Below the pieces are notes generated by a model. That model ran no database searches. It saw nothing but the letters and a program-made list of their open reading frames with translations, and was not told the origin of the DNA. 64,000 nt of DNA. Origin: a bacterium. GTDB lineage: Bacteria > Patescibacteriota > Minisyncoccia > UBA6257 > Colwellbacteraceae. This document shows positions 3,703 through 46,466 of the stretch, in pieces (positions within the stretch are counted from its first letter, which is position 1; each line of letters begins with the position of its first letter). Where the stretch lies: contig JAJYME010000006.1 of assembly GCA_021787205.1 (NCBI GenBank), forward strand, positions 15,644 through 79,643. Reading direction: 5' to 3'. The position numbers were made by a program, and so were the translations under genes.

Positions 3703-3864
3703 TTTTTTGATTCCAAATGATTTGTCTGAATTCTAACAAAATTTCTCAAAAATATAAAGAGAACGACACAAAAACAAAAATAAGTAAACACCTCCCTGCC
3801 TTCCCTGAACCTTTACCAGGCTCCAAGCATAAGGTATTTACTTATTTTATTGATGCTATGCCGT

Positions 3865-7105: not shown

Positions 7106-7639
7106 TTATTGGTTGAGTTCTTCTATTTTTTGGGCAACGAGAGAATCCACTTCCGCATTAAACTTATCAACGATCTTTTGCAAACCGTCTTTGGCTCGGA
7201 ACTTCTCATCCTCATCGGCGATGGCATTTACCGCCTTTATATATTTGTCCCTGTTGGACCTCATCTTGATGCGGTTCTCCTCGGCAATTGATTTTACGAG
7301 TTTTATAAGCTCGTCTTTTCTTTCAATGGTCAGTTCTGGCATTGTGAGGCGGACTCCCGTTGAATCGGCGACGATTCCCAATCCCAGATTCTCCGATTCG
7401 ATAGCCTTGGTAATGGCCGGAATCGCGGCCTTATCCCAAGGGGTAACGATGATATCGCGAGGGGCTTGGATGGAGAGGCTGGCCACCTGGTTAAGCTCCA
7501 AGTTGGTCCCCATATAATCTACCTTCACGCGCTCGACCAGCCTTGTCGTCGGCCTGTTTGAGCGGATTTTCATGTATTCTTCCTTGAGCCACGAGATAAT
7601 TCCCGCGGTCATTTGTTCCATTTCTTTTAAAGGATCCAT
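7106..7639 (-). CDS. frr: Ribosome recycling factor
   Basis: 177 aa aligning along its full length with Frr (…VERVKVDYMGTNLELNQVASL…). Confidence 0.9.
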   Translation of the reverse strand: MDPLKEMEQMTAGIISWLKEEYMKIRSNRPTTRLVERVKVDYMGTNLELNQVASLSIQAPRDIIVTPWDKAAIPAITKAIESENLGLGIVADSTGVRLTMPELTIERKDELIKLVKSIAEENRIKMRSNRDKYIKAVNAIADEDEKFRAKDGLQKIVDKFNAEVDSLVAQKIEELNQ

Positions 7640-8397
7640 GGTGTTGATTTTAATTGAAGTTTTTTATTTAAGTTGAATTGTTTTGAAAGATAATAACGAT
7701 GAAGCGATTCTTTCAGGTTCTGATAACTCTTTTCCTCCGAGTTATATAGGTCAAGCAGTGATTTCAATATGAACTTGTCATACTCCGCCTCCGTTTCGAA
7801 TTTAAGATCTTTTGGAGCTTTGATCTTTTGCCAGTCTTCGGACAAGATAGCCTTCGCCAGTCCCGGCCGGCCGAGAGAAATTCTCGCCAGGCTTTCCGCT
7901 TCCTTTTCCGGAAGTTTGCATTCCTCAATCAGCCAGCTTCTCATTATTTCCATCTGGACTCTTGGAAAGTATATTTTCCTGAGCCTCGAAGCGAGGGTCG
8001 GCAAGATTGACTCCGATGAATTCACCGTCAAGATGATCAAGGAATGGATTGGCGGCTCCTCAGTTATCTTCAAGAAGGCGTTTTGGGCCTCCCTTGTCAT
8101 ATTTTCCGCGTCACGGACGATGACCGTCCTATAATCGGAAGCTACCGGAACGACGGCTAAGAAGTTTTTTATCTCTCTTATCTCATCGATTCCGATCGTA
8201 TTCCTTTCCGGGTCAGGACTGATTATGAAAGCATCGGACAAAACCGAAGGATTCTTCTCTAAGGAATTCGCCAGCTCAAGAGCAAAGGCGAACTTCCCTG
8301 TCATCGGTTCTCCGAAGAACAGATAACTGCCCCCGAGAGTTCCCGACTCCCTCATTTTTGTTATGATTGCTTTTTCTTTTTCCCGACCTATTAACAT
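7627..8397 (-). CDS. holB: DNA polymerase III delta' subunit-like AAA+ clamp-loader protein
   Basis: Degenerate P-loop GEPMTGKFAFALELA, a DAENMT Walker B-like box, and the sensor TLASRLRKIYF (an SRC-like motif). 256 aa. Confidence 0.6.
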   Translation of the reverse strand: MLIGREKEKAIITKMRESGTLGGSYLFFGEPMTGKFAFALELANSLEKNPSVLSDAFIISPDPERNTIGIDEIREIKNFLAVVPVASDYRTVIVRDAENMTREAQNAFLKITEEPPIHSLIILTVNSSESILPTLASRLRKIYFPRVQMEIMRSWLIEECKLPEKEAESLARISLGRPGLAKAILSEDWQKIKAPKDLKFETEAEYDKFILKSLLDLYNSEEKSYQNLKESLHRYYLSKQFNLNKKLQLKSTPWIL

Positions 8398-8421
8398 TTT
8401 ATTTTAAAAATTATACAGATG

Positions 8422-8544
8422 ACGCAAACACTCTCGCAGCGTTATCTGCAGCGATTCGGCCCGGTCGGCGCCACGGGCGACGCGAATCGCGAAGCCATTC
8501 GAGTGAGCGCCGGCTCACGAGATTAGCGAGAGAGTTGTTTGCGT
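8422..8544. ncRNA. Copy A of a ~120-nt structured intergenic element (see findings); strand unknown
   Basis: Terminal inverted arms CGCAAACACTCTCGC and GCGAGAGAGTTGTTTGCG enclose two hairpins; hairpin 2 has a GCCG loop, the GCYG-loop counterpart of copies B and C. Related copies lie at 10699-10825 and 45811-45930. Confidence 0.45.
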
Positions 8545-8564
8545 TGTTTGTAATTCGCTCGTAA

Positions 8565-9641
8565 TTAGAATTTATTAAGCAAAGTTTTCTTATAAACATC
8601 CAAATGATTCAAGATCATGCTCGAACCCTTGGCGACGCACATTATCGCTTCCGGAGCGGTATACGCTTCCACTCCCAGGATGCGCTTCAGGAAATCAGCG
8701 ATGTTTCTGAGGTTGGCTCCTCCGCCGGAAACTATCACTCCTTTTTCCATTACGTCCGCCACTAACTCTGGCGGTGTCTGGTTGAAGACTCCTTGGATGC
8801 TCGAAGCGATTTCCAAAAGCAGTGGATTCAAAGCTTCGGCGATCTCGTTCGAATTGATGGTGATGTCTTTTGGAAGACCCGTCGTCAGGTCTCTTCCGCG
8901 AATTTCGAATTCGATCTTATTCTTCATCGGAATTGCCGAACCGGCGTTTATCTTCGCCAACTCCGCGGTCTGCTCTCCAATGGATAGGGAATACTTCTTC
9001 TTGATGTATTCTATGATCGCATTGTCGAACTTGTTTCCGGCAACTCTAAGAGAAGACCAGCAAACGACGGAACCTAGGGCGATTACAGCCACCTCAGAAG
9101 TTCCTCCGCCGATGTTAACAATCATATTTCCAGAAGACGAGTTGATCGGGATTCCAGCGCCTAAGGCAGCCATTAATGGTTCCTTGACGATATAGGCGGT
9201 CTTAGCTCCTGCTTCTTCCGCCGCTTGGACGATAGCGCGTCTTTCGGTTGCCGTAATTCCAGCCGGACCGGAGACAACCACATCAGGACGCCAGATATTA
9301 AATGTGCCAATAGCCTTTCTGATAAAATAGGTCAGCATTGCTCGAGTGATATAATAGTCGGCAATGACGCCATCCTTAAGCGGACGGTAAGCGGCGATGT
9401 CTCCGGGCGTGCGACCAACCATTTCTTTCGCCTCCCTTCCGACAGCCAAAACTTTGTTAGTTGATAAATCAAGCGCAACGATTGTTGGTTCATTGATTAT
9501 GAAACCCTTGTCCGGAGTGTAGACCACGGTATTTGTCGTTCCCAAATCAATCCCTATCTGACGCGTAAACATAATTAATATATTAACATAAAATACCCCA
9601 AAGTCTAACCCGCTTTGATTGACAAAACGCCCTAAATTCAT
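8565..9641 (-). CDS. Second MreB/Mbl-family actin-like protein
   Basis: Has [12 protein letters not shown] and GGGTSEVAV motifs. 358 aa. A paralogue of the 3865-4908 gene. Confidence 0.8.
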   Translation of the reverse strand: MNLGRFVNQSGLDFGVFYVNILIMFTRQIGIDLGTTNTVVYTPDKGFIINEPTIVALDLSTNKVLAVGREAKEMVGRTPGDIAAYRPLKDGVIADYYITRAMLTYFIRKAIGTFNIWRPDVVVSGPAGITATERRAIVQAAEEAGAKTAYIVKEPLMAALGAGIPINSSSGNMIVNIGGGTSEVAVIALGSVVCWSSLRVAGNKFDNAIIEYIKKKYSLSIGEQTAELAKINAGSAIPMKNKIEFEIRGRDLTTGLPKDITINSNEIAEALNPLLLEIASSIQGVFNQTPPELVADVMEKGVIVSGGGANLRNIADFLKRILGVEAYTAPEAIMCVAKGSSMILNHLDVYKKTLLNKF

Positions 9642-9840: not shown

Positions 9841-10668
9841 TTAGGTCAAAATGACCGGTCCGGATTTGCTGATGCTGATCGTATGTTCAAAATGGGCCGC
9901 AATCGATCCGTCTTCAGTCGCGTATGATCCATCAGAAAGAGAAACGATTTCCCCCTCCCCCAAGGCGAACATCGGTTCGATCGCCAAGACCATTCCTTCT
10001 CTCAGTTTCATTCCGGTTTTCGGATTGCCGAAGTTCCAAACGAAAGGATCTTCATGGACAGCTAATCCGACGCCGTGTCCGGAGAGTCCTTCAGCGATCG
10101 AAAGCTTGAACTTGTTCGCCGTTTTCTCTATTGCCCAACCGATGTCCCCAAGGCTATTTCCGATTATAGAAACCTTGATTGCCTCTTCCAAAGCGATTTT
10201 CGTTCCGTCAATCAATCTCTTTATCTCCTTCGGCATTTCTTTTTCATCCCCGACGAATACCGTCGTAGCCGAATCGGAAAAATAACCGTCGAGATTGACC
10301 CCAAGATCAAGCTTCAAGACATCGTGAGCGCGCAAAACGTAATCCCTAGGTATTCCGTGGACAACGATATTGTTTACTGAGGCGCAAATCGAAGCCGGAT
10401 AAGGCTCACTTGCTCCTTCCGGCCTATAATGGAGAAAGGAAGGGACTCCACCCTCGTCAGTGATCAGGTCGTATGCCAGCTTGTCCAAAAAAGAGAGTTT
10501 TACCCCTTCCTTGGCTGCCTTCTGAAGTCGCCCCAAAGCCCTGTTGAGAATCGCCCCGGAGGCGGCGATACCCTCGATCTGCTCCTCGGTTTTTATTAGA
10601 TTTTTATTCGTATTTTTACTCAATTTGCAACTTAATAACCAAACCTTTGTGTGGTAGCAAATTACCAC
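9841..10668 (-). CDS. map: Methionine aminopeptidase type I
   Basis: Pita-bread metal-ligand pattern (D..D..H..E..E) and the typical position after adk. Confidence 0.9.
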   Translation of the reverse strand: MVICYHTKVWLLSCKLSKNTNKNLIKTEEQIEGIAASGAILNRALGRLQKAAKEGVKLSFLDKLAYDLITDEGGVPSFLHYRPEGASEPYPASICASVNNIVVHGIPRDYVLRAHDVLKLDLGVNLDGYFSDSATTVFVGDEKEMPKEIKRLIDGTKIALEEAIKVSIIGNSLGDIGWAIEKTANKFKLSIAEGLSGHGVGLAVHEDPFVWNFGNPKTGMKLREGMVLAIEPMFALGEGEIVSLSDGSYATEDGSIAAHFEHTISISKSGPVILT

Positions 10669-10698
10669 AATATCCAGTAAATATCAATTTATTTAAAA

Positions 10699-10825
10699 AA
10701 GCATCATATATCTTCATAGCGGCTTTTGAGGCATTTTGGCACGGTCCGACAAAGTCGGCAAAATGCCGAAACCTCGGAGGATGTCGCTGGACGTCCGAGA
10801 ATGAGCGAGAAGATATATGATGCTT
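10699..10825. ncRNA. Copy C of the structured intergenic element
   Basis: 17-bp terminal inverted repeat AAGCATCATATATCTTC and GAAGATATATGATGCTT, with an internal hairpin of AAA loop and a second hairpin of GCTG loop. Confidence 0.45.
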
Positions 10826-10833
10826 ATAAAGGC

Positions 10834-11529
10834 CTACTTGTTAAATTCCTTCCACACCTTCATCACCTCCTTGTGAATATTCTTAGGCGTATTCATCGCA
10901 TCGATTTTTACCACCTTGACGCCCATCTTTTTCATTCTCTGGACTATGGGTAAAGTGAGCCGCTTATATTCCTGGCAACGGATCCTGATTGTCTTCGGCT
11001 CATCCAGTCCCGGTCTCCCTCGAAGGGAATTTCTCTTGACTGATTCTGCGACCGGAATATTGAACCAGATGACGATCATATTCTCCAACCCGTAATACTT
11101 TTCAAGCAAGGCTACCGTCCCTTTTTTTCCATTCATGCCAAAAGCCTCTCGAGGAGTCCTCGGACTGCCGGAAAAAATCAACCCGTGACCGACTCGGGAA
11201 AAATCCTTGATAGGGTCATCGATGATTGAGATTACCCATTCCGGGGAGCAAAGCTTCCCGCTCATGAAGAGCTTTCGTTGTTTTTGGACGATCGGTTTTT
11301 TAAGAGCCTCGGGGTCGTTGATTATCTTTTCGATATGAGTCCCCGTATCGAATTGGGAGAACTTGTCCGTGCCGACCGTCTCCAAGAACAACTTCGCCTG
11401 AGTCCCCTTTCCCGATCCTGGCGGGCCATAAAAGATTACCGCCTTAGGAATATCCTTTCTTTTTATCTTAGTCTCCTTCTCCGCCTTCGTTTCCTTTTTG
11501 GCAGTTTTAACTGAAGTCGTCTTTTTCAT
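10834..11529 (-). CDS. adk: Adenylate kinase
   Basis: IFYGPPGSGKGTQAKLF P-loop. 231 aa with a Lys-rich N-terminal extension. Confidence 0.9.
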   Translation of the reverse strand: MKKTTSVKTAKKETKAEKETKIKRKDIPKAVIFYGPPGSGKGTQAKLFLETVGTDKFSQFDTGTHIEKIINDPEALKKPIVQKQRKLFMSGKLCSPEWVISIIDDPIKDFSRVGHGLIFSGSPRTPREAFGMNGKKGTVALLEKYYGLENMIVIWFNIPVAESVKRNSLRGRPGLDEPKTIRIRCQEYKRLTLPIVQRMKKMGVKVVKIDAMNTPKNIHKEVMKVWKEFNK

Positions 11530-11596: not shown

Positions 11597-12757
11597 TTAT
11601 TTGACATACCAGCGCATCACGAATTGTCCGGCGTCGCTGCTCGAACAAGAAGTGTTGTAATAGAGCGCCCCGTTGTACCCAGTCCACTTAAAAACCCAAT
11701 CTAGCTTGAGTCCGGTCATATCGGTGGCGCTGCAGCAAGGATTTGCCCAAACGCCATCAGCCCAGTTACACATTCCAAAACTGGTATAAGAACCGCCGTA
11801 TGGAGGATTGTAGTAGCCCGTCGAACCGCCGCCGATGCTGGAACACTGGAGAATGCTCGTCGTCCTGTGCAACAAGGTGGTCACATTATTATAGGGTATC
11901 TTTACCGAAGTGATATCATATTGTTTCACGTTGACGCTGCAGCTTGTTCCGTAACCGGTTCCGACAACATCCGATCCGTTCCAGGCAGCCGTCCCTTTAT
12001 TAACGACAATGCTTGCCAGATTGGCATTAAGCGCCGTCCAACCGCCACCATCCGAAACCATATCGCAATCGACGGCAATGATCGGTTCTATGCCGGTTCC
12101 GTCAACGTCTATCCAATATTGGCCGCTCGCCGCCTGGGAGTATTTCGTCTTGATATCGAGACAACTTGTCCCTTTAGCTACATTGGGGGCGACTGTCAGT
12201 GAGTTCCCCATCTCAAAGACGGCTCCATTATCTCCCCCGTCCTTAGCTGCCGAATCAAAGAATTTCGCCGATTCCACCGCCGCGTCAATCTCAAAGCCTC
12301 CGGCGGCCGCCGCATAAACATAATAGGATCCGGTCGAACCATCGTTCTTAGGATCGATTGGTAAGACCGAAACCGGCGATCCTCCTTTTATATTTCTGAA
12401 ATCTGTCGGCATCCAGCCCGTACCGTCAATCTTGCGGAGATTTGCGGTTGTCACGCATCTGTAAGTCCATCCTGAAGGCAGGGCCGGCAGGCCGGTTATG
12501 TTGGCGCAGGTCGCGGATGTATCCGGGATGGAGATATAGGCGACATTGGCCGCCCCAAGGGAGGTGGCGGGACTGTCGGCGATCAAAAGCATTGTCGCAT
12601 CATCGATTGATTTGATGTCTGTCTTCCTGCTTGAATCCCTTGATTGGGCTAAAAGTTCCGTCGGATTGAGGACTAAGACCGTTGCCGACCCCAAAACGGC
12701 GACGATCGCAATCACTATAAGAAGTTCTATTAAAGTGAAAGCCCGAATACGAGACAT
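11597..12757 (-). CDS. Type IV pilin/pseudopilin-like protein with a large Cys/Gly/Thr-rich C-terminal domain
   Basis: N-terminus RAFTLIELLIVIAIVAVLG is a class III prepilin signal carrying the conserved Glu5. 386 aa. Its own terminators sit on both sides. Confidence 0.6.
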   Translation of the reverse strand: MSRIRAFTLIELLIVIAIVAVLGSATVLVLNPTELLAQSRDSSRKTDIKSIDDATMLLIADSPATSLGAANVAYISIPDTSATCANITGLPALPSGWTYRCVTTANLRKIDGTGWMPTDFRNIKGGSPVSVLPIDPKNDGSTGSYYVYAAAAGGFEIDAAVESAKFFDSAAKDGGDNGAVFEMGNSLTVAPNVAKGTSCLDIKTKYSQAASGQYWIDVDGTGIEPIIAVDCDMVSDGGGWTALNANLASIVVNKGTAAWNGSDVVGTGYGTSCSVNVKQYDITSVKIPYNNVTTLLHRTTSILQCSSIGGGSTGYYNPPYGGSYTSFGMCNWADGVWANPCCSATDMTGLKLDWVFKWTGYNGALYYNTSCSSSDAGQFVMRWYVK

Positions 12758-12856: not shown

Positions 12857-14137
12857 CTAAGCTGATTCGTATTCGCTGACTTTAAGCTGTGATTCGATTT
12901 GTTGCATTGAATCCAAGGCAACGGAAACGACAATTAAAAGCGTCGTTCCTCCGAAGGTGAAATTCTGCTTGGTTATCACCTGGGTGACAATCGGCAGGAT
13001 TGCCAATACCGCCAGGAATAAGGCGCCGAAGAAAGTTGTCTTTCCGGTGATGTTCCCGAGATAGTTGGCGGTCGGATCTCCAGGACGGATTCCGGGGACG
13101 AATCCACCGGAGTGTTGGAGATTTTTCGAAATTTCATTCGAATCGAAAACAACGGCTGTATAGAAGTAAGTAAAGGCAAAGACAAGGACGAAATAAATGG
13201 CGCCGTAAATGAGCTGATTGCTCATAAATGTCTTGACGGCCCCGTTTATCGCTTGGATGCCCGGAATCGAAGTCAGGGAGAGGAACGCCAGAACCATTTG
13301 CGGCAGCGACAAAAGCGCAATCGCAAAGATTATCGGAATGACTCCCGCCTGAGTTACCTTGATAGGCAAATAACTGTCGACTCCCGCCATTACTCTTCCG
13401 CCCCTTATCCTTTTCGGATAAGTGACAGGAATCCTCCTTTCGCCGGAGCTGATGAATACCACTCCGCCGACGATCAGGACGATCAAAACGGCGAAGACGG
13501 CAAAGACATCAATGCCTAAGGCCCCATCTGAAAGCTTTGAAAAAGCACTCATGATCTGGTTAGGCAATCCGGCGACGATACCGGCGAAGATGACGAGAGA
13601 AACACCGTTTCCGATCTTTTTCTCGTCAATCAATTCGCCGACCCACAAAAGGATCATTGTTCCGGCTGTGGCAACTGCAATGTTGATCCACAAATCCGGA
13701 GACAAGAGACCCATTTTAGGAATAACTTGTTGGGCAGCGAGGAGTTTTATGTAACTGAACGTCTGGATTACAGCCAAAGGAATAGTGATCAATCGGCTGA
13801 TCCTGTTGAATTTGGCGCGTCCAGCCGAACCGTCTTCATAATACATTTCCTTGAGTGATGGGAAAATCATAGTCAAGAGCTGCATTATGATGGTTGCGGT
13901 GATATAAGGGCCTACGCCCAACATCGCCACGGAAATTTTATCCAAACTTCCGCCGGAAAAAACGCTCCAGAAACCCAACATTTGGTTGTTGGCATAAAAC
14001 GCCTTCAAAGCTTCGACGTTTACGTTAGGCAGGACGACTGCCGCAAGCAAACGGAAGAATACGAGAAGGCCCAAGACCACTAGGATCTTGTTCCTTAACT
14101 CTGTCGAACGAAATATTCTCAAAAAGCGTTTAAGCAT
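12857..14137 (-). CDS. secY: Preprotein translocase subunit SecY
   Basis: 426 aa with 10 TM segments and the canonical SecY N-terminus. Confidence 0.95.
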   Translation of the reverse strand: MLKRFLRIFRSTELRNKILVVLGLLVFFRLLAAVVLPNVNVEALKAFYANNQMLGFWSVFSGGSLDKISVAMLGVGPYITATIIMQLLTMIFPSLKEMYYEDGSAGRAKFNRISRLITIPLAVIQTFSYIKLLAAQQVIPKMGLLSPDLWINIAVATAGTMILLWVGELIDEKKIGNGVSLVIFAGIVAGLPNQIMSAFSKLSDGALGIDVFAVFAVLIVLIVGGVVFISSGERRIPVTYPKRIRGGRVMAGVDSYLPIKVTQAGVIPIIFAIALLSLPQMVLAFLSLTSIPGIQAINGAVKTFMSNQLIYGAIYFVLVFAFTYFYTAVVFDSNEISKNLQHSGGFVPGIRPGDPTANYLGNITGKTTFFGALFLAVLAILPIVTQVITKQNFTFGGTTLLIVVSVALDSMQQIESQLKVSEYESA

Positions 14138-14325: not shown

Positions 14326-15144
14326 TTACTTTACGGATTTAAGCTGCTTTAAGGCGGCGACGGTAGCCATAGCATTGGTTAATTTGTTCTTGGTTCCTCC
14401 AAGGCACTTTGCAGTGACATCTTTTACTCCTGCGAGCAAAAGAACGGAACGAACAGCTCCACCAGCCATAAGTCCGTGTCCGGGTTTAGCCGGGCGGATA
14501 ATGACTTGGGCGGCAGAGAACTTGGCTTTTGTCTCGTGAGTGATAGTTCCCTCTACGATCTTAAAGGTGACAAGTTTCTTCTTGGCAGCGGTCTTTGCCT
14601 TGGAAACAGCTGACTGGACGTCAGCCCCCTTAGCAACACCGACACCGATGGTTCCTTTTCCATCTCCGATTACAACAGTAGCTCGGAAGCGGAAGCGCTT
14701 TCCACCGGCGACGACACGAGTGACGCGGCGAAGGTCAAGAACAGATTCATTGAATCCATCTCTTTCTTTTTCGACTTCCTTTCTGAAAGGACGTCCACCT
14801 CTTCTGTCTCCGCCTTGAGAGCGGAATCCTCCCTCACGCTTTTCTCCAGGCTTGAAAGGACGGCGAGGTCCGCCAAATGAAGGGCGGGTTCCCTCTTGTC
14901 CTTGAGGACGAGGAGTGAACGGTCGGGAGCCTGCTGGTCTGGGCGTAAACGGCCTAGATCCGGCAGGACGAGAACCTTGTTGTCCGGCAGGACGAGGAGT
15001 GAAAGGACGGGAGCCTGCTGGTCTGGGCGTAAACGGCCTAGATCCGGCAGGTCTCGCGCCAGCGGGTCTTGCGCCAGCCGGTTTAGCGCCGGTGGGACGA
15101 GGAGACGAAGCTGGTTTGGTTGATTGTACTTTTTGTTCTTCCAT
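14326..15144 (-). CDS. rpsE: Ribosomal protein S5 with a ~120-aa Pro/Arg/Gly-rich repetitive N-terminal extension
   Basis: The C-terminal 150 aa form the canonical S5 (RVTRVVAGGKRFRFRATVVIGDGKG…). The N-terminus carries PAGSRPFTPRPAG repeats encoded by an 84-bp tandem DNA repeat. Confidence 0.9.
   Translation of the reverse strand: MEEQKVQSTKPASSPRPTGAKPAGARPAGARPAGSRPFTPRPAGSRPFTPRPAGQQGSRPAGSRPFTPRPAGSRPFTPRPQGQEGTRPSFGGPRRPFKPGEKREGGFRSQGGDRRGGRPFRKEVEKERDGFNESVLDLRRVTRVVAGGKRFRFRATVVIGDGKGTIGVGVAKGADVQSAVSKAKTAAKKKLVTFKIVEGTITHETKAKFSAAQVIIRPAKPGHGLMAGGAVRSVLLLAGVKDVTAKCLGGTKNKLTNAMATVAALKQLKSVK
14906..15052. repeat. In-frame tandem repeat (two ~62-nt near-identical units spaced 84 bp apart) inside the rpsE 5' region
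   Basis: GGACGAGGAGTGAAnGGnCGGGAGCCTGCTGGTCTGGGCGTAAACGGCCTAGATCCGGCAGG appears at 14906-14967 and again at 14990-15052. Confidence 0.8.
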
Positions 15145-28263: not shown

Positions 28264-28335
28264 TCTTTTATTACGGGCTGTAGTATAACGGCAGTATATA
28301 CCCTTGGGGTGGGTACGACCCGGGTTCAATTCCCG
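28264..28335 (+). tRNA. tRNA-Pro (anticodon GGG); CCA not encoded
   Basis: C1-G72 acceptor CGGGCTG/CAGCCCG, anticodon arm TACCC-TTGGGGT-GGGTA, and T-arm CCGGG-TTCAATT-CCCGG. Confidence 0.85.
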
Positions 28336-28346
28336 GCAGCCCGACA

Positions 28347-28380
28347 TAATAAATAATCCCTACCGTAAGGTGGGGGTTAT
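28347..28380 (+). terminator. Intrinsic terminator after tRNA-Pro
   Basis: CCCTACC-GTAA-GGTGGGG hairpin followed by TTATTTTTATT. Confidence 0.5.
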
Positions 28381-28514
28381 TTTTATTCATAAGGGCCGGG
28401 AATTGAAAAGGGATGGGGTCGGAAGGGAGACGAAGGTATCCCTTCCGTATTGGAAGCTCGCGAAACGGAAGTTTCGCGGGAGCGAGCCGCGCCTCGCGAC
28501 GTGAAATAGCGAAG

Positions 28515-28590
28515 CGTCCCGGCAGCCCGACATAATAAATAATCCCTACCGTAAGGTGGGGGTTATTTTTATTCATAAGGGCCGGGAATT
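28515..28590 (+). repeat. Direct repeat of the last 15 nt of tRNA-Pro plus the 60 nt downstream, including the terminator hairpin
   Basis: 28321-28395 is repeated nearly exactly at 28515-28590. The two copies are separated by a ~120-nt GC-rich insert. Confidence 0.85.
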
Positions 28591-28929
28591 GGAGACATAA
28601 AAAGCCGCGTTATATACAACGCGGCTTTTCTAACCCGACTTTAAGTTAGACTCCCGGCTAATGCCAGATTGGCAGTCCTCAATTTTAACCCACGGGTTAA
28701 AAAAATGTTGGATAGCCTTAAAAAATTATTTGATCCGGAATCTAACTTGTCGGATAATTTTATTATATATGACTGTTAAGAACAGTAAATATCAAAAAAT
28801 AAAAGACTTTTTTCAGACTTGACACTCATTCACTTCCTAAGACCTAAAATGATTTTTAACGCAAGAGGACTTATTCACAATCAGCATAAAAAAACAGCAA
28901 CTTAAAGCTGCTGTTTTCATATTTGACTT

Positions 28930-29532
28930 CTATTCCAAGATTCCATCGAGATTGACATCATACAAAAGCGATTCGGAAATAAGCTTATAAGCAATCAACT
29001 CGTTCTCCGAGAACCAAAGCATAATTTCCTTCTCCGCCTCTTCAACCGATCCGGAAGCATGGACAATATTTCTAACCGCCCTGCTGTCAGTATCTGCCAA
29101 GATGTAAGAGTCGATAGTCAAATCCCCCCTGATGGTTCCGACATCAGATGAAGCCGGCTCAGTGCTGCCGACAATCTTCCTGGTCGTTGTGACTGCTCCG
29201 ACTCCTTGCCAAACCATGGCAACGACCGGTCCGGCTGTAAAGTACTTGATCAAACCGTCCAGGACTCTCTTTCCAGCTTCTTCCGGATTTTTATTCGGGG
29301 CCTCTAAGCCCTTCTTCTCATAAGCAGAAATAGCCTTATTGCCGACTTTGACCAACCATTCTGGATCGATCAAGTAATGCTTGTTTACCAATTCGCTGGT
29401 CGGAACGATCATCTTGATGGCAATCAACTTCAAACCGACTCTCTCAAATCGGGAGATTATCTCTCCTATCAAAGCCCTTTGGACTCCCTCTGGCTTTACT
29501 ACCACTAATGTTTTTTCCTTCTTGATATCCAT
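28930..29532 (-). CDS. ndk: Nucleoside diphosphate kinase with an insertion and a C-terminal extension
   Basis: VVVKPEGVQRALIGEIISRFERVGLKL, GPVVAMVWQG, TIRGD and NIVHASGS (active-site His) motifs. Confidence 0.85.
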   Translation of the reverse strand: MDIKKEKTLVVVKPEGVQRALIGEIISRFERVGLKLIAIKMIVPTSELVNKHYLIDPEWLVKVGNKAISAYEKKGLEAPNKNPEEAGKRVLDGLIKYFTAGPVVAMVWQGVGAVTTTRKIVGSTEPASSDVGTIRGDLTIDSYILADTDSRAVRNIVHASGSVEEAEKEIMLWFSENELIAYKLISESLLYDVNLDGILE

Positions 29533-43859: not shown

Positions 43860-45752
43860 TTAATTAGAATTCGTAGATTCTGAACCACTATCCTCTCGGG
43901 TTTGTTCTCCTCTACCGGGCTCATTTGTATTTGCATTGGCGTTGTCTTTATTGTACATAATTTCGCCAATCTTTTGAAGCTCGGTCGACAATGCTTCGAA
44001 TTTCGATTCTATGTTTTTTTCGTCATCGCCCTTCAAGGCGTCACGAAGATCGGTAATCTTGTTTTCGATGGAAACCCTAAGCTCAGAAGACACTTTTTCT
44101 CCGGCGTCCTTAAGGGACTTCTCGGCGGTATAGATCAGGTTTTCTGCCATATTTCTCTTTTCTGCCAGATCTCTGATCTTCTTGTCGGCTTCGGCCGCTT
44201 CGGCCGCCTCCTTCTTCAAGCGCTCGATTTCATCCTTGGACAATGAGGTTTTGGCCTCGATCCTGACTGATTGTGACTTTCCGGTCGCCTTATCGGCGGC
44301 TTTGACGTTCAAAATTCCGTTGGCGTCAATGTCAAAAGTGACTTCGACTTGCGGGACTCCTCTCGGTGATGGCGGGATTCCCTCTAGGACGAACTTGGCC
44401 AAGGTTTTGTTATCGGCAGCTCTCGCTCTCTCTCCCTGGGTAATATGGATTTCAACTGACGTCTGGTTGTCCGAGGCGGTGGAGAATATTTGCGACTTCG
44501 CAAAAGGAATGGTCGTATTCTTCTCAATCATCGGAGTGGCGATCCCACCCATTGTTTCAATCGAAAGGGTCAAAGGAGTGACATCGAGCAACAAGACGTC
44601 TTTGACATCTCCTTGGAAGATTCCTCCCTGGACAGCTGCTCCTAAAGCGACAACTTCGTCAGGATTGATTCCCCTGTGGGGATCCTTTCCAAAAATGCTT
44701 TTGACGGATTCCTGGATGGCTGGCATCCTGGTCTGTCCTCCGACCAAAATGACTTCGTCGATATCCGAGATCTGAAGCCCGGCTTCCTTGACGGTCGCCT
44801 TAGTCAGCTCTCCGGCTCTTCCGATCAGATCCGCAACAAGCTCCTCGAGCTTGGAACGGGTAATTTTCATCTCCAAGTGTTTCGGACCTTCAGCGATATA
44901 AGGAAGATTGACGGTGGTCTCGACAGCGGACGAAAGTTCATGCTTGGCGCGCTCGACCGCTTCCTTCAAACGTTGTAAAGCGAGTGAATCCTTGGAAAGG
45001 TCGACTCCTTCGGTCCTTTTATATTCGGCAATGACGTATTCCTGGAGTTTTGTATCCAAGTCGTCTCCACCCAAATGGGTGTCGCCTCCGGTTGAAAGGA
45101 CTTTGACATCTCCTCCCAATGAATCGAAATCGACTTCCAAGACGGAAACGTCAAAAGTTCCTCCTCCAAAATCATAAACGACGATTTGTTCGTTCTTTTG
45201 CTTGTTCAATCCGTAAGCTAAAGCGGCAGCCGTCGGTTCGTTGATGATTCTTTTGACGGTCAATCCGGCGATTTCTCCGGCGTTCTTAGTCGCTTGTCTT
45301 TGGGCATCGTCAAAGTAGGCCGGGACGGTAATGACCGCTTCGGTGACTTTCTCGCCCAAGCGCATCTCGGCATCCGCCTTAAGCTTGGCCAAGACCATGG
45401 CGGAAATTTCTTCCGGAGCATGCCATTTGTCTCCTAACTTTATCTCGACACCGCCGTTTGCCGACTCTCTGATGTCATATGGCAACAAGGCTTTGTCCTT
45501 CTGGACTTCCGCGTCGGTCCATTTGCGTCCGATAAGACGCTTGACCGAAAACAGAGTATCCTTCGGGTTGGTGACCGCTTGGCGTTTAGCCAAAAGGCCG
45601 ACCAGTCTCTCATTTGTTTTTGAAAGCGCGACGATGGAAGGAGTTGTTCTCGCTCCCTCGGCGTTTTCAATAATAGCTGGTGATCCATCGGATCCGACAA
45701 CCGCCACGGCGGAATTAGTCGTTCCAAGATCGATTCCTATTACTTTTCCCAT
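43860..45752 (-). CDS. dnaK: Chaperone DnaK (Hsp70)
   Basis: [17 protein letters not shown] and [11 protein letters not shown] motifs. 630 aa. Confidence 0.97.
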
Positions 45753-45810
45753 AGTTACATATAATAATGAATTTATTTACAAAATTAAAGAGCTTGAAAA
45801 TAAACAAAAT

Positions 45811-45930
45811 AAGCATCACTCTCGCAGCGTTGTCTGCAATATTTTGGCACGGTCGGCATAAAATGCCGCAAAATACGAAGCCATTCAAGCAAATCGCTGG
45901 ATTTGCTTGATCAGCGAGAGAGTGATGCTT
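45811..45930. ncRNA. Copy B of the structured intergenic element (between grpE and dnaK)
   Basis: Terminal arms AAGCATCACTCTCGC and GCGAGAGAGTGATGCTT. Hairpin CGGCAT-AAA-ATGCCG. Hairpin CAAGCAAATC-GCTG-GATTTGCTTG. Confidence 0.5.
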
Positions 45931-45944
45931 ATTTTTGTATATTT

Positions 45945-46466
45945 CTAATTTTCTTTTCCTTTGGAAACGACGACTCTTGCGGGACGAATTAACTTTCCGT
46001 CAAGCATATAACCGCGCTCGATTTCATCAACGACGGTATTCTCCGGCAAATCAGAGGGGACGGAAGCGATCGCTTCATGCAATTCAGGATTGAACTGGTC
46101 TCCTTTTGTCGAATTGATTTTTTCCAAGCCCTTTTTCTTAAGAGCGTCCTCAAGCTGGGTCTTGATCATCTGGACCCCCTTCAACAATTCAGGATCGGCG
46201 TTCTTCGATAAGGAAATCAGCGACAAATCGAAACTGTCGAGGACGGGTATCAATCCGCCGATGAAATCATAGGCATTCATGCGAGAGAAATCCCTCAGCC
46301 TGTTTGATTCCTCGTTCTTGTAATTGATGAACTCCGCCTTTGCCCTCTTCCATCCGTCGAGGTACTCATCCTTCTCTTTCATCAAAGCTTCAAGCTCTGT
46401 TTTCTTTATCGAGACCACCTCTTCATTATTTTGTTCCGATGTGGTTTCTTTGTTCTCTTCCTCCAT
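45945..46466 (-). CDS. grpE: Nucleotide exchange factor GrpE
   Basis: 173 aa with a coiled-coil N-terminus and a GrpE C-terminal beta domain (…MLDGKLIRPARVVVSKG). Confidence 0.85.
   Translation of the reverse strand: MEEENKETTSEQNNEEVVSIKKTELEALMKEKDEYLDGWKRAKAEFINYKNEESNRLRDFSRMNAYDFIGGLIPVLDSFDLSLISLSKNADPELLKGVQMIKTQLEDALKKKGLEKINSTKGDQFNPELHEAIASVPSDLPENTVVDEIERGYMLDGKLIRPARVVVSKGKEN

Follow-up and report, generated by a model that had tools for sequence, protein, structure and literature searches.

The spacer between map and adk in this window (the whole 64-kb stretch of DNA that was analysed) is occupied by a 127-nt sequence with two perfectly complementary ends. The first-pass annotation had described this sequence as copy C of a structured element found three times in the window, and had singled out a change in both of its arms as the clearest compensatory change of the family, with the implication that selection acts there on a structured RNA belonging to the spc-type operon. 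The question raised by the locus is what kind of sequence carries such arms, an RNA element that serves the operon or a palindromic piece of DNA that happens to reside in it. Copy C probably belongs to a family of small, non-autonomous palindromic DNA repeats in candidate-phyla-radiation (Parcubacteria-type) bacteria, and the best-supported reading of the element is that it is selfish or at least dispensable.

The position reported earlier, between map and adk within an spc-type operon, was confirmed, with map, adk and secY all on the minus strand. Copy C begins 9 nt downstream of the adk stop codon and its end lies about 75 nt upstream of the likely map start. The features of the locus are as follows, with scores from two models of the family, R1 and R2.

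9841-10668, minus strand: map (M24 peptidase), likely TTG start at 10624
10699-10825: copy C, palindromic element of 127 nt (R1 119.6 bits; R2 82 bits, E 3.4e-24)
10699-10715: left terminal arm of copy C, helix P1, AAGCATCATATATCTTC
10721-10773: long helix P3
10721-10725 with 10769-10773: lower stem of P3
10730-10738 with 10759-10767: main stem of P3, GGCATTTTG with CAAAATGCC
10739-10745: GCACGGT, a one-sided internal loop in P3 and the family's most conserved unpaired block
10746-10758: apical hairpin of P3, CCGAC-AAA-GTCGG
10774-10800: hairpin P2, GGATGTC (10779-10785) with GACGTCC (10790-10796)
10786-10789: P2 loop, conserved GCTG
10797-10808: conserved junction block from P2 to the right arm, GAGAATGAGCGA (in the copies inside miaA, GAGAATGAG)
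10809-10825: right terminal arm of copy C, helix P1, GAAGATATATGATGCTT
10834-11529, minus strand: adk (ADK)
12857-14137, minus strand: secY

A repeat search of the window returned the two arms (10699-10715 and 10809-10825) as 17 nt each, 100% complementary and spaced by 93 nt, and every pair of P1, from 10699-10825 through 10715-10809, is Watson-Crick, which bears out the earlier description of perfectly complementary 17-bp arms. By our own estimate, fewer than 0.001 perfect 17-bp inverted repeats within 200 nt are expected by chance per 64 kb. Copy C folds at -58.2 kcal/mol on the plus strand (z -6.95) and at -49.9 kcal/mol on the minus strand (z -5.96), and none of 200 shuffles folded equally well; copies A and B likewise outdo their shuffles by a wide margin. 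The same spc-type gene cluster also encodes, between secY and adk, a 386-aa protein with an N-terminal prepilin-type methylation motif (11597-12757, minus strand). This placement of a pilin-like gene, the half-megabase contigs that encode the same proteins and the relatives of the element are the grounds on which the host is taken to be a candidate-phyla-radiation (Parcubacteria-type) bacterium.

Two further copies of the element are present in the window.

8421-8546 (about): copy A, between mreB (8565-9641, minus strand) and a holB-like gene (7627-8397, minus strand)
45806-45935 (about): copy B, between grpE (45945-46466, minus strand) and dnaK (43860-45752, minus strand)

The three copies measure 120-127 nt each, and no others were detected in roughly 8 kb added beyond the window ends. 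Copies A, B and C share a conserved core and are all scored by R1 within 116.3-119.6 bits (A 116.3, B 118.5), and the proposed three-copy family stands. The arms of copy A are ACGCAAACA-CTCTC / GAGAG-TGTTTGCGT, and those of copy B are AAGCATCACTCTCGC ... GCGAGAGAGTGATGCTT; in copy B, arms and flanks together give an 18-nt perfect pairing (45806-45823 with 45918-45935). As had been noticed, copy C keeps the ends of copy B, the outer 8 bp AAGCATCA/TGATGCTT being common to both, and its inner arm is changed relative to B on both sides with complementarity intact. Copy B, which is identical in sequence in five related assemblies, is a mosaic with outer arms like C and inner arms and junctions like A, and this make-up suggests exchange between copies. 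All three copies are intergenic, lie in operon spacers and have the same orientation as their flanking genes. GC skew is negative on the plus strand across the window, so the three share one orientation relative to both genes and replication, an agreement that says little at n = 3.

Several other repeats and insertions were seen in the same window. A 72-nt spacer sequence at 3777-3848 has 17-nt arms of 94% complementarity, AAAATAAGTAAACACCT / AGGTATTTACTTATTTT; these start with AAAATAAG, as does the extended arm of copy B, and the interior is unrelated to the core. This sequence may be a reduced relative or else a palindromic element of another kind. At 28331-28405 and 28517-28591 there is a perfect 75-nt direct repeat, which begins in the 3' end of tRNA-Pro(GGG) (28274-28345) and takes in the downstream hairpin. 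The 111 nt separating its two copies are hairpin-rich, e.g., CGCGAAAC...GTTTCGCG, and the arrangement resembles an att-type duplication of the kind that a small element leaves on integration or excision. The gene for ribosomal protein S5 (14326-15144, minus strand) contains an 84-nt tandem duplication (14881-15048), 87% identical and with 28 aa per unit; Pfam S5 domains begin only at residue 131, which places the repeat in an N-terminal extension. The nucleoside diphosphate kinase ORF (28930-29532, minus strand) is 200 aa long and matches Pfam in two stretches, the best from residue 84, a pattern that suggests an N-terminal extension or an internal insertion.

Joint folding of the copies, which had been put forward with the first-pass annotation as the way to check the family, recovered a common structure. 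When A, B, C and one homologue were folded together with RNAalifold, 30 pairs emerged, of which 21 show double changes. The structure is a three-way junction of P1, P3 and P2, and its core can be folded on either strand. P1 is the terminal stem formed by the arms, 15-21 bp long in units of 120-145 bp. P3 is a long helix with the conserved one-sided internal loop (GCACGGT on the window plus strand) and a variable apical hairpin, and P2 is a short hairpin with the GCTG loop, next to which lies the conserved GAGAATGAG junction. The conserved blocks of the family are these unpaired loops, flanked by variable stems. What sets the element apart is that its structured core is conserved while the arms vary freely and stay complementary.

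The relationship of the window copies to more distant relatives was assessed with covariance model R2, which was built from seven copies inside miaA with no window sequence included. In a search of the window it yet matched copy C at 82 bits and copy B at 49 bits (49.4 bits, E 1.7e-13), which ties the window copies to the family non-circularly. Copy A gave no R2 match at E<=1 and is tied to the family via its clear similarity to B and model R1. In a 10-member alignment, which had itself been fitted to the model, 94.6% of cells were standard pairs and 35 of 53 pairs were changed on both sides; none of 500 shuffles reached the observed values, and sliding the partners by 1-3 columns lowered pairing to 37-51%. 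Two-sided changes affect five of the seven pairs of P2 (helix 7).

The composition of the pairs bears on whether the fold belongs to RNA or to DNA. A census of the consensus counted 468 Watson-Crick, 18 G-U, 10 A-C and 18 other pairs, and in the minimum-energy folds of 11 copies the G-U pairs number 19 and 18 on the two strands. The window plus orientation folds 1-13 kcal/mol better in 9 of the 11 copies. Folding energy was considered as a guide to the strand and was dropped, since the wobble census traces the difference to loop and stacking terms and not to G-U pairs. Rare wobble pairs, the lack of strand asymmetry and the variable orientation to host transcription together make the element look like a DNA palindrome and not like a one-strand RNA.

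Gain, loss or replacement of the element at fixed sites distinguishes strains that are nearly identical. Strain ERZ27237050 has flanking genes 98.8-99.8% identical to those of the window, and two of the three sites differ between these ~99%-identical strains. At site C, on the contig that encodes the window's Adk (L002), copy C is absent and 28 unrelated nt replace window positions 10688-10832, with flanking genes 98.8-99.0% identical. At site A, the mreB-holB spacer (L059 1162-1345), there is a strongly divergent relative with arms CATCAGCTT.../...AAGCTGATG, a P3 helix of the same kind, GGCGATTTG...GCCGTGCCAAATCGCC, and an extra hairpin. R1 gives this variant no more than 12 bits, its neighbouring genes to either side are 98.9-99.5% identical to the window, and GAATTAC stands directly before the element in both strains. 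Site B, the grpE-dnaK spacer (L056), is identical to the window. The absence of copy C and the very different variant at site A, both in a ~99%-identical strain, speak against the reading implied earlier, in which the compensatory change points to a structured RNA kept by selection in the spc-type operon.

The borders of the differing sites show how far this polymorphism speaks for transposition. At sites A and C the entire spacer differs between the strains, with no clean insertion, so spacer-allele exchange by recombination is as possible as transposition. The borders of A, B, C and the miaA copies, where the flanks are AT-rich and partly extend the palindrome, show no evident direct repeat that would indicate a target-site duplication. 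The 28 nt in place of copy C (L002 3698-3725) contain GCCGCTCAT, which is like both element junction motifs, TCGCTCAT and GCCGCTAT; this could be a remnant, a footprint or chance.

Relatives outside the window were found inside miaA, a gene that is itself absent from the window. A scan of a genome collection with the pattern TCTCGCT...GGYTTCG...GACCGNGCCRAA returned 23 loci, 22 of them chance matches in GC-rich genomes; the sole true one, L006 (Candidatus Giovannonibacteria, MFIM01000012.1), was matched partly by luck. A metagenome scan returned 21 loci, of which three were real (L027, L032 and L039). The patterns of both scans were too strict for the family's true diversity, and six more miaA loci were obtained via MiaA homologues. 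In L006, L027, L032 and L039 the element lies inside the miaA ORF, just upstream of the conserved ILW(L/I)G...PEELKKRI, and the ORF is open and in frame through it. Each miaA locus (~12-21 kb) holds a single copy, sense to miaA in L027, L047, L052 and L053 and antisense in L006, L050, L051 and L048.

The miaA copies are apparently read through as protein. Across 51 MiaA homologues, the linker from RAIEI to ILWLG has 22-36 aa in many and 47-98 aa in others, and the long linkers contain translations of the element in several frames and both orientations. In L027 the native linker is replaced by the element. Protein P0016 switches the frame of the element and then switches back, so that the overall frame is preserved. 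In an AlphaFold model of P0001 the mean pLDDT is 82.8 and falls below 50 only at residues 176-229, which are the insertion, placed by the model between a helix and a core strand. Taken together, the replaced linker, the frame switching and the low-pLDDT insertion argue that the miaA copies are translated in frame as a disordered loop and not removed.

Searches at the protein level point to miaA as the only known intragenic site, within the one of six frames that was searched. A 48-aa element peptide run with HMMER against 1.84 billion cluster representatives matched only P0036 (a MiaA) and P0129, a 225-aa protein matched at residues 174-218, which are MiaA-like positions. A 1131-aa six-frame concatenate and a 142-aa three-frame query gave no protein-database match, though P0001 has an identical peptide, and this result is not evidence of absence.

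The nucleotide sequence of the element is better conserved than that of its host gene. Seven miaA copies average 78% pairwise identity within the element, against 63-64% in the miaA coding DNA (300 nt each side), and the elements of L006 and L027 are 87% identical despite opposite orientations. The arms of the miaA copies differ at several positions, and the opposite arm changes to match. Either the nucleotide sequence of the element is more constrained than the enzyme gene, or the element has entered repeatedly at the same site after the gene had diverged.

The miaA linker is a hot spot for such insertions. In L047 a second, different palindromic insertion (~10660-10785) directly follows the first in the same linker, with arms GGCGAAGAATGGCCCTC / GAGGGAGCATTCTTCGCC, and the stretch 10645-10800 folds at -70 kcal/mol. 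The linkers of other MiaA homologues carry further recurrent insert types, RRGVDFAGFEASEHG...EESKINTAA and ENLAQRDGASRAIRQQANMRVFEKN. In L048 (10554-10735), ~36 extra nt form an additional hairpin in place of the P2 loop, and the outer arms are decaying.

A mobilising enzyme or parent element was searched for in several places. A tblastn search of the window found no Y1 transposase, no IS or transposase was seen in the window or adjoining the copies, and neither a recombinase nor an autonomous parent element turned up for the family. BLAST against phages and plasmids and one scan of viral contigs gave no true match to the element. One of the miaA loci, L052, encodes a 223-aa Y1/HUH transposase-like protein (1874-2586; Pfam Y1_Tnp), which scored a weak 44.5 bits against NF047646 (REP-associated tyrosine transposase; cut-off 80). 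Three copies of a 25-nt hairpin, ATGTTAGACACCGAGTGTTTAACAT, lie upstream of, inside and at the end of this RAYT-like gene. The gene was considered as the mobiliser of the element and was rejected, as it has its own, unrelated hairpins; gene and hairpins together resemble a separate system of REP/RAYT type that resides in a candidate-phyla-radiation genome. A search of the literature found no description of such palindromic elements in the candidate phyla radiation.

Among known systems, the closest organisation is that of the Rickettsia palindromic elements (RPEs), a precedent for in-frame palindromic repeats both in spacers and within genes (PMC10969869). RPEs, like the present element, are palindromic repeats of ~100-150 bp in a reduced genome, with several copies per genome, which sit in spacers and in frame in housekeeping ORFs, are translated as an extra peptide and have no known transposase. 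In the present family the in-frame insertion is seen in the miaA relatives, whereas the three window copies are intergenic. The hosts belong to an unrelated phylum, copy number is low and a single intragenic site (miaA) compares with dozens for RPEs; moreover, the peptide is not conserved here, the same DNA being read in several frames and both orientations. The element may thus be described as analogous to RPEs, by organisation and not by comparison of sequence with the RPE families, and it is not called a member of them.

MITE-type repeats such as Correia, ERIC and RUP are likewise small and non-coding, carry terminal inverted repeats, occupy operon spacers, are co-transcribed and vary between strains. 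In MITEs, however, the terminal repeats are conserved, match those of a parent IS and are flanked by target-site duplications, whereas in the present element the arms are the most variable part and the core is conserved, with no duplication or parent IS seen. Conserved termini shared with a parent IS are not found in this family, as the arms differ among A, B, C and the miaA copies.

REP, BIME and REPIN sequences (RAYT, Y1/HUH) are also palindromic repeats that fold as single-stranded DNA hairpins, in which structure outweighs the sequence of the arms, and REP/BIME sequences have side effects on mRNA stability. REPs are 20-40 nt long with a GTAG or CGTC head and flank a RAYT gene, whereas the present element has ~125 nt, three helices and no such head, its arms starting with AAGC, ACGC, GGAG or AAAAC. 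A RAYT gene flanked by the same repeats was not found: the window has none, and the hairpins of the RAYT-like gene in L052 are unrelated to the element. Integron attC sites (57-141 nt) resemble the element in their variable complementary arms and conserved unpaired bases, and would share with it a recognition based on structure, but they form a single bulged hairpin and not a three-way junction. Identity with attC was rejected, as the arms lack RYYYAAC/GTTRRRY core sites. No cassette array or integrase was present among the Pfam-annotated genes around the copies, and the neighbours checked were housekeeping genes.

These observations have to be weighed against readings in which the fold serves the host. 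The element could act in cis as a structured RNA within polycistronic operons, whether by marking a processing site, by stabilising the mRNA or as an attenuator or partial terminator, with its fold under RNA selection and its variable arms the product of compensatory evolution at the RNA level. Such a role would fit the placement of all window copies in operon spacers in the orientation of the flanking genes, the very stable folds and strong covariation, and the conservation of the core between distant lineages. It would also fit the TTTTTT that follows the downstream arm of copy C in gene orientation, but the stem of copy C is long, AT-rich and branched, and a scan for terminators does not call the element. 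We consider this reading unlikely, given that a 99%-identical strain lacks copy C, that wobble pairs make up 3.5% with no strand bias, and that no Rfam family matches (at the gathering threshold the whole window yields three tRNAs only). The miaA relatives weigh against the RNA selection implied by the first-pass annotation as well, being located in a coding region, in both orientations and translated, with pairs that are nearly purely Watson-Crick. A self-cleaving ribozyme or a gene for a small RNA, expressed independently and present in several genomic copies, would account for the three-way junction, the conserved unpaired blocks and the tetraloop, and is nevertheless highly improbable. Rfam scans of copies C, B and L006 at E<=10 returned nothing above chance level, promoter and terminator calls offer nothing striking, neither strand is preferred, and the miaA copies are translated. 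A hammerhead or other ribozyme core was rejected on reading the sequence, in which hammerhead core motifs are absent, and Rfam agrees.

Symmetry between the strands is expected if the element is instead an orientation-independent DNA site with a host function, that is, a cruciform or hairpin bound by a nucleoid protein, a topoisomerase (as at BIMEs), a recombinase or a replication-linked factor, and kept by selection on double-stranded DNA symmetry. Watson-Crick pairing valid on both strands, either orientation at the same miaA position, nucleotide conservation above that of the host gene and conserved unpaired loops amid variable stems, as expected for protein recognition, all agree with such a site. 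The element is dispensable at site C, however, its copies are few, the coding region of an enzyme is an odd location, and no partner protein was found; we would give a host site little credence. The mobile repeat has evidence against it as well. Low copy number (three in 64 kb), a single intragenic site and the lack of any parent element or target-site duplication count against it, and the polymorphism could have arisen through homologous exchange of alleles, with no transposition involved. The common orientation of the window copies with their operons is also predicted by a function at the transcript level, and a host function could also account for the strong conservation at the nucleotide level and for the pairing being retained.

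If copy C is a member of a mobile palindromic DNA repeat family, its mode of maintenance can be outlined as follows. A folded single-stranded or cruciform DNA core, and not the ends, would be recognised by a trans-acting enzyme or recombination process. The complementarity of the arms would be kept through arm-to-arm correction or inversion, besides selection; perfect complementarity can be maintained by such DNA-level processes as well as by RNA selection. Seen in this light, the description of copy C as the clearest compensatory change of the family keeps its factual part, the two-sided change of the arms being real, and loses its implied cause, as DNA arm-to-arm correction or inversion explains the change at least as well as RNA selection does. 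The adk-map transcript would contain copy C simply as a passenger. By analogy with REP/BIME, ERIC and Correia sequences, the very stable structure that it would form directly 3' of adk could slow 3' exonucleases or partly terminate transcription, and an influence on mRNA decay or read-through would then be a side effect and not the reason for the existence of the element.

A more specific version of the mobile repeat is offered tentatively, as a possibility that we regard as rather doubtful. The element may be a structure-specified mobile or recombination module, in which an enzyme recognises the core of the three-way junction, including the unpaired blocks GCACGGT and GAGAATGAG, presumably in the form of folded single-stranded DNA, and in which the termini are not the recognition site. 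Such a module would arrive time and again, in one orientation or the other, at a small number of favoured sites, namely the miaA linker and spacers just after stop codons. If true, this would account for the higher conservation of the element relative to its host gene, and it would represent a new kind of recognition by structure, comparable in principle to that of attC or REP and different in architecture.

Small palindromic repeats are well studied in proteobacteria, and their in-frame versions mainly in Rickettsia. Candidate-phyla-radiation genomes are tiny and are generally regarded as poor in selfish DNA. The family described here shows that small palindromic repeats are present in the candidate phyla radiation, and that one of them is tolerated inside an enzyme gene, in either orientation, with the gene unbroken. 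Its conserved core and variable arms are the reverse of the usual MITE pattern and, together with conservation above that of the host gene, point to a folded structure recognised by a partner. For the annotation of such genomes, the family is a caution that a covarying intergenic structure is not always a regulatory RNA.
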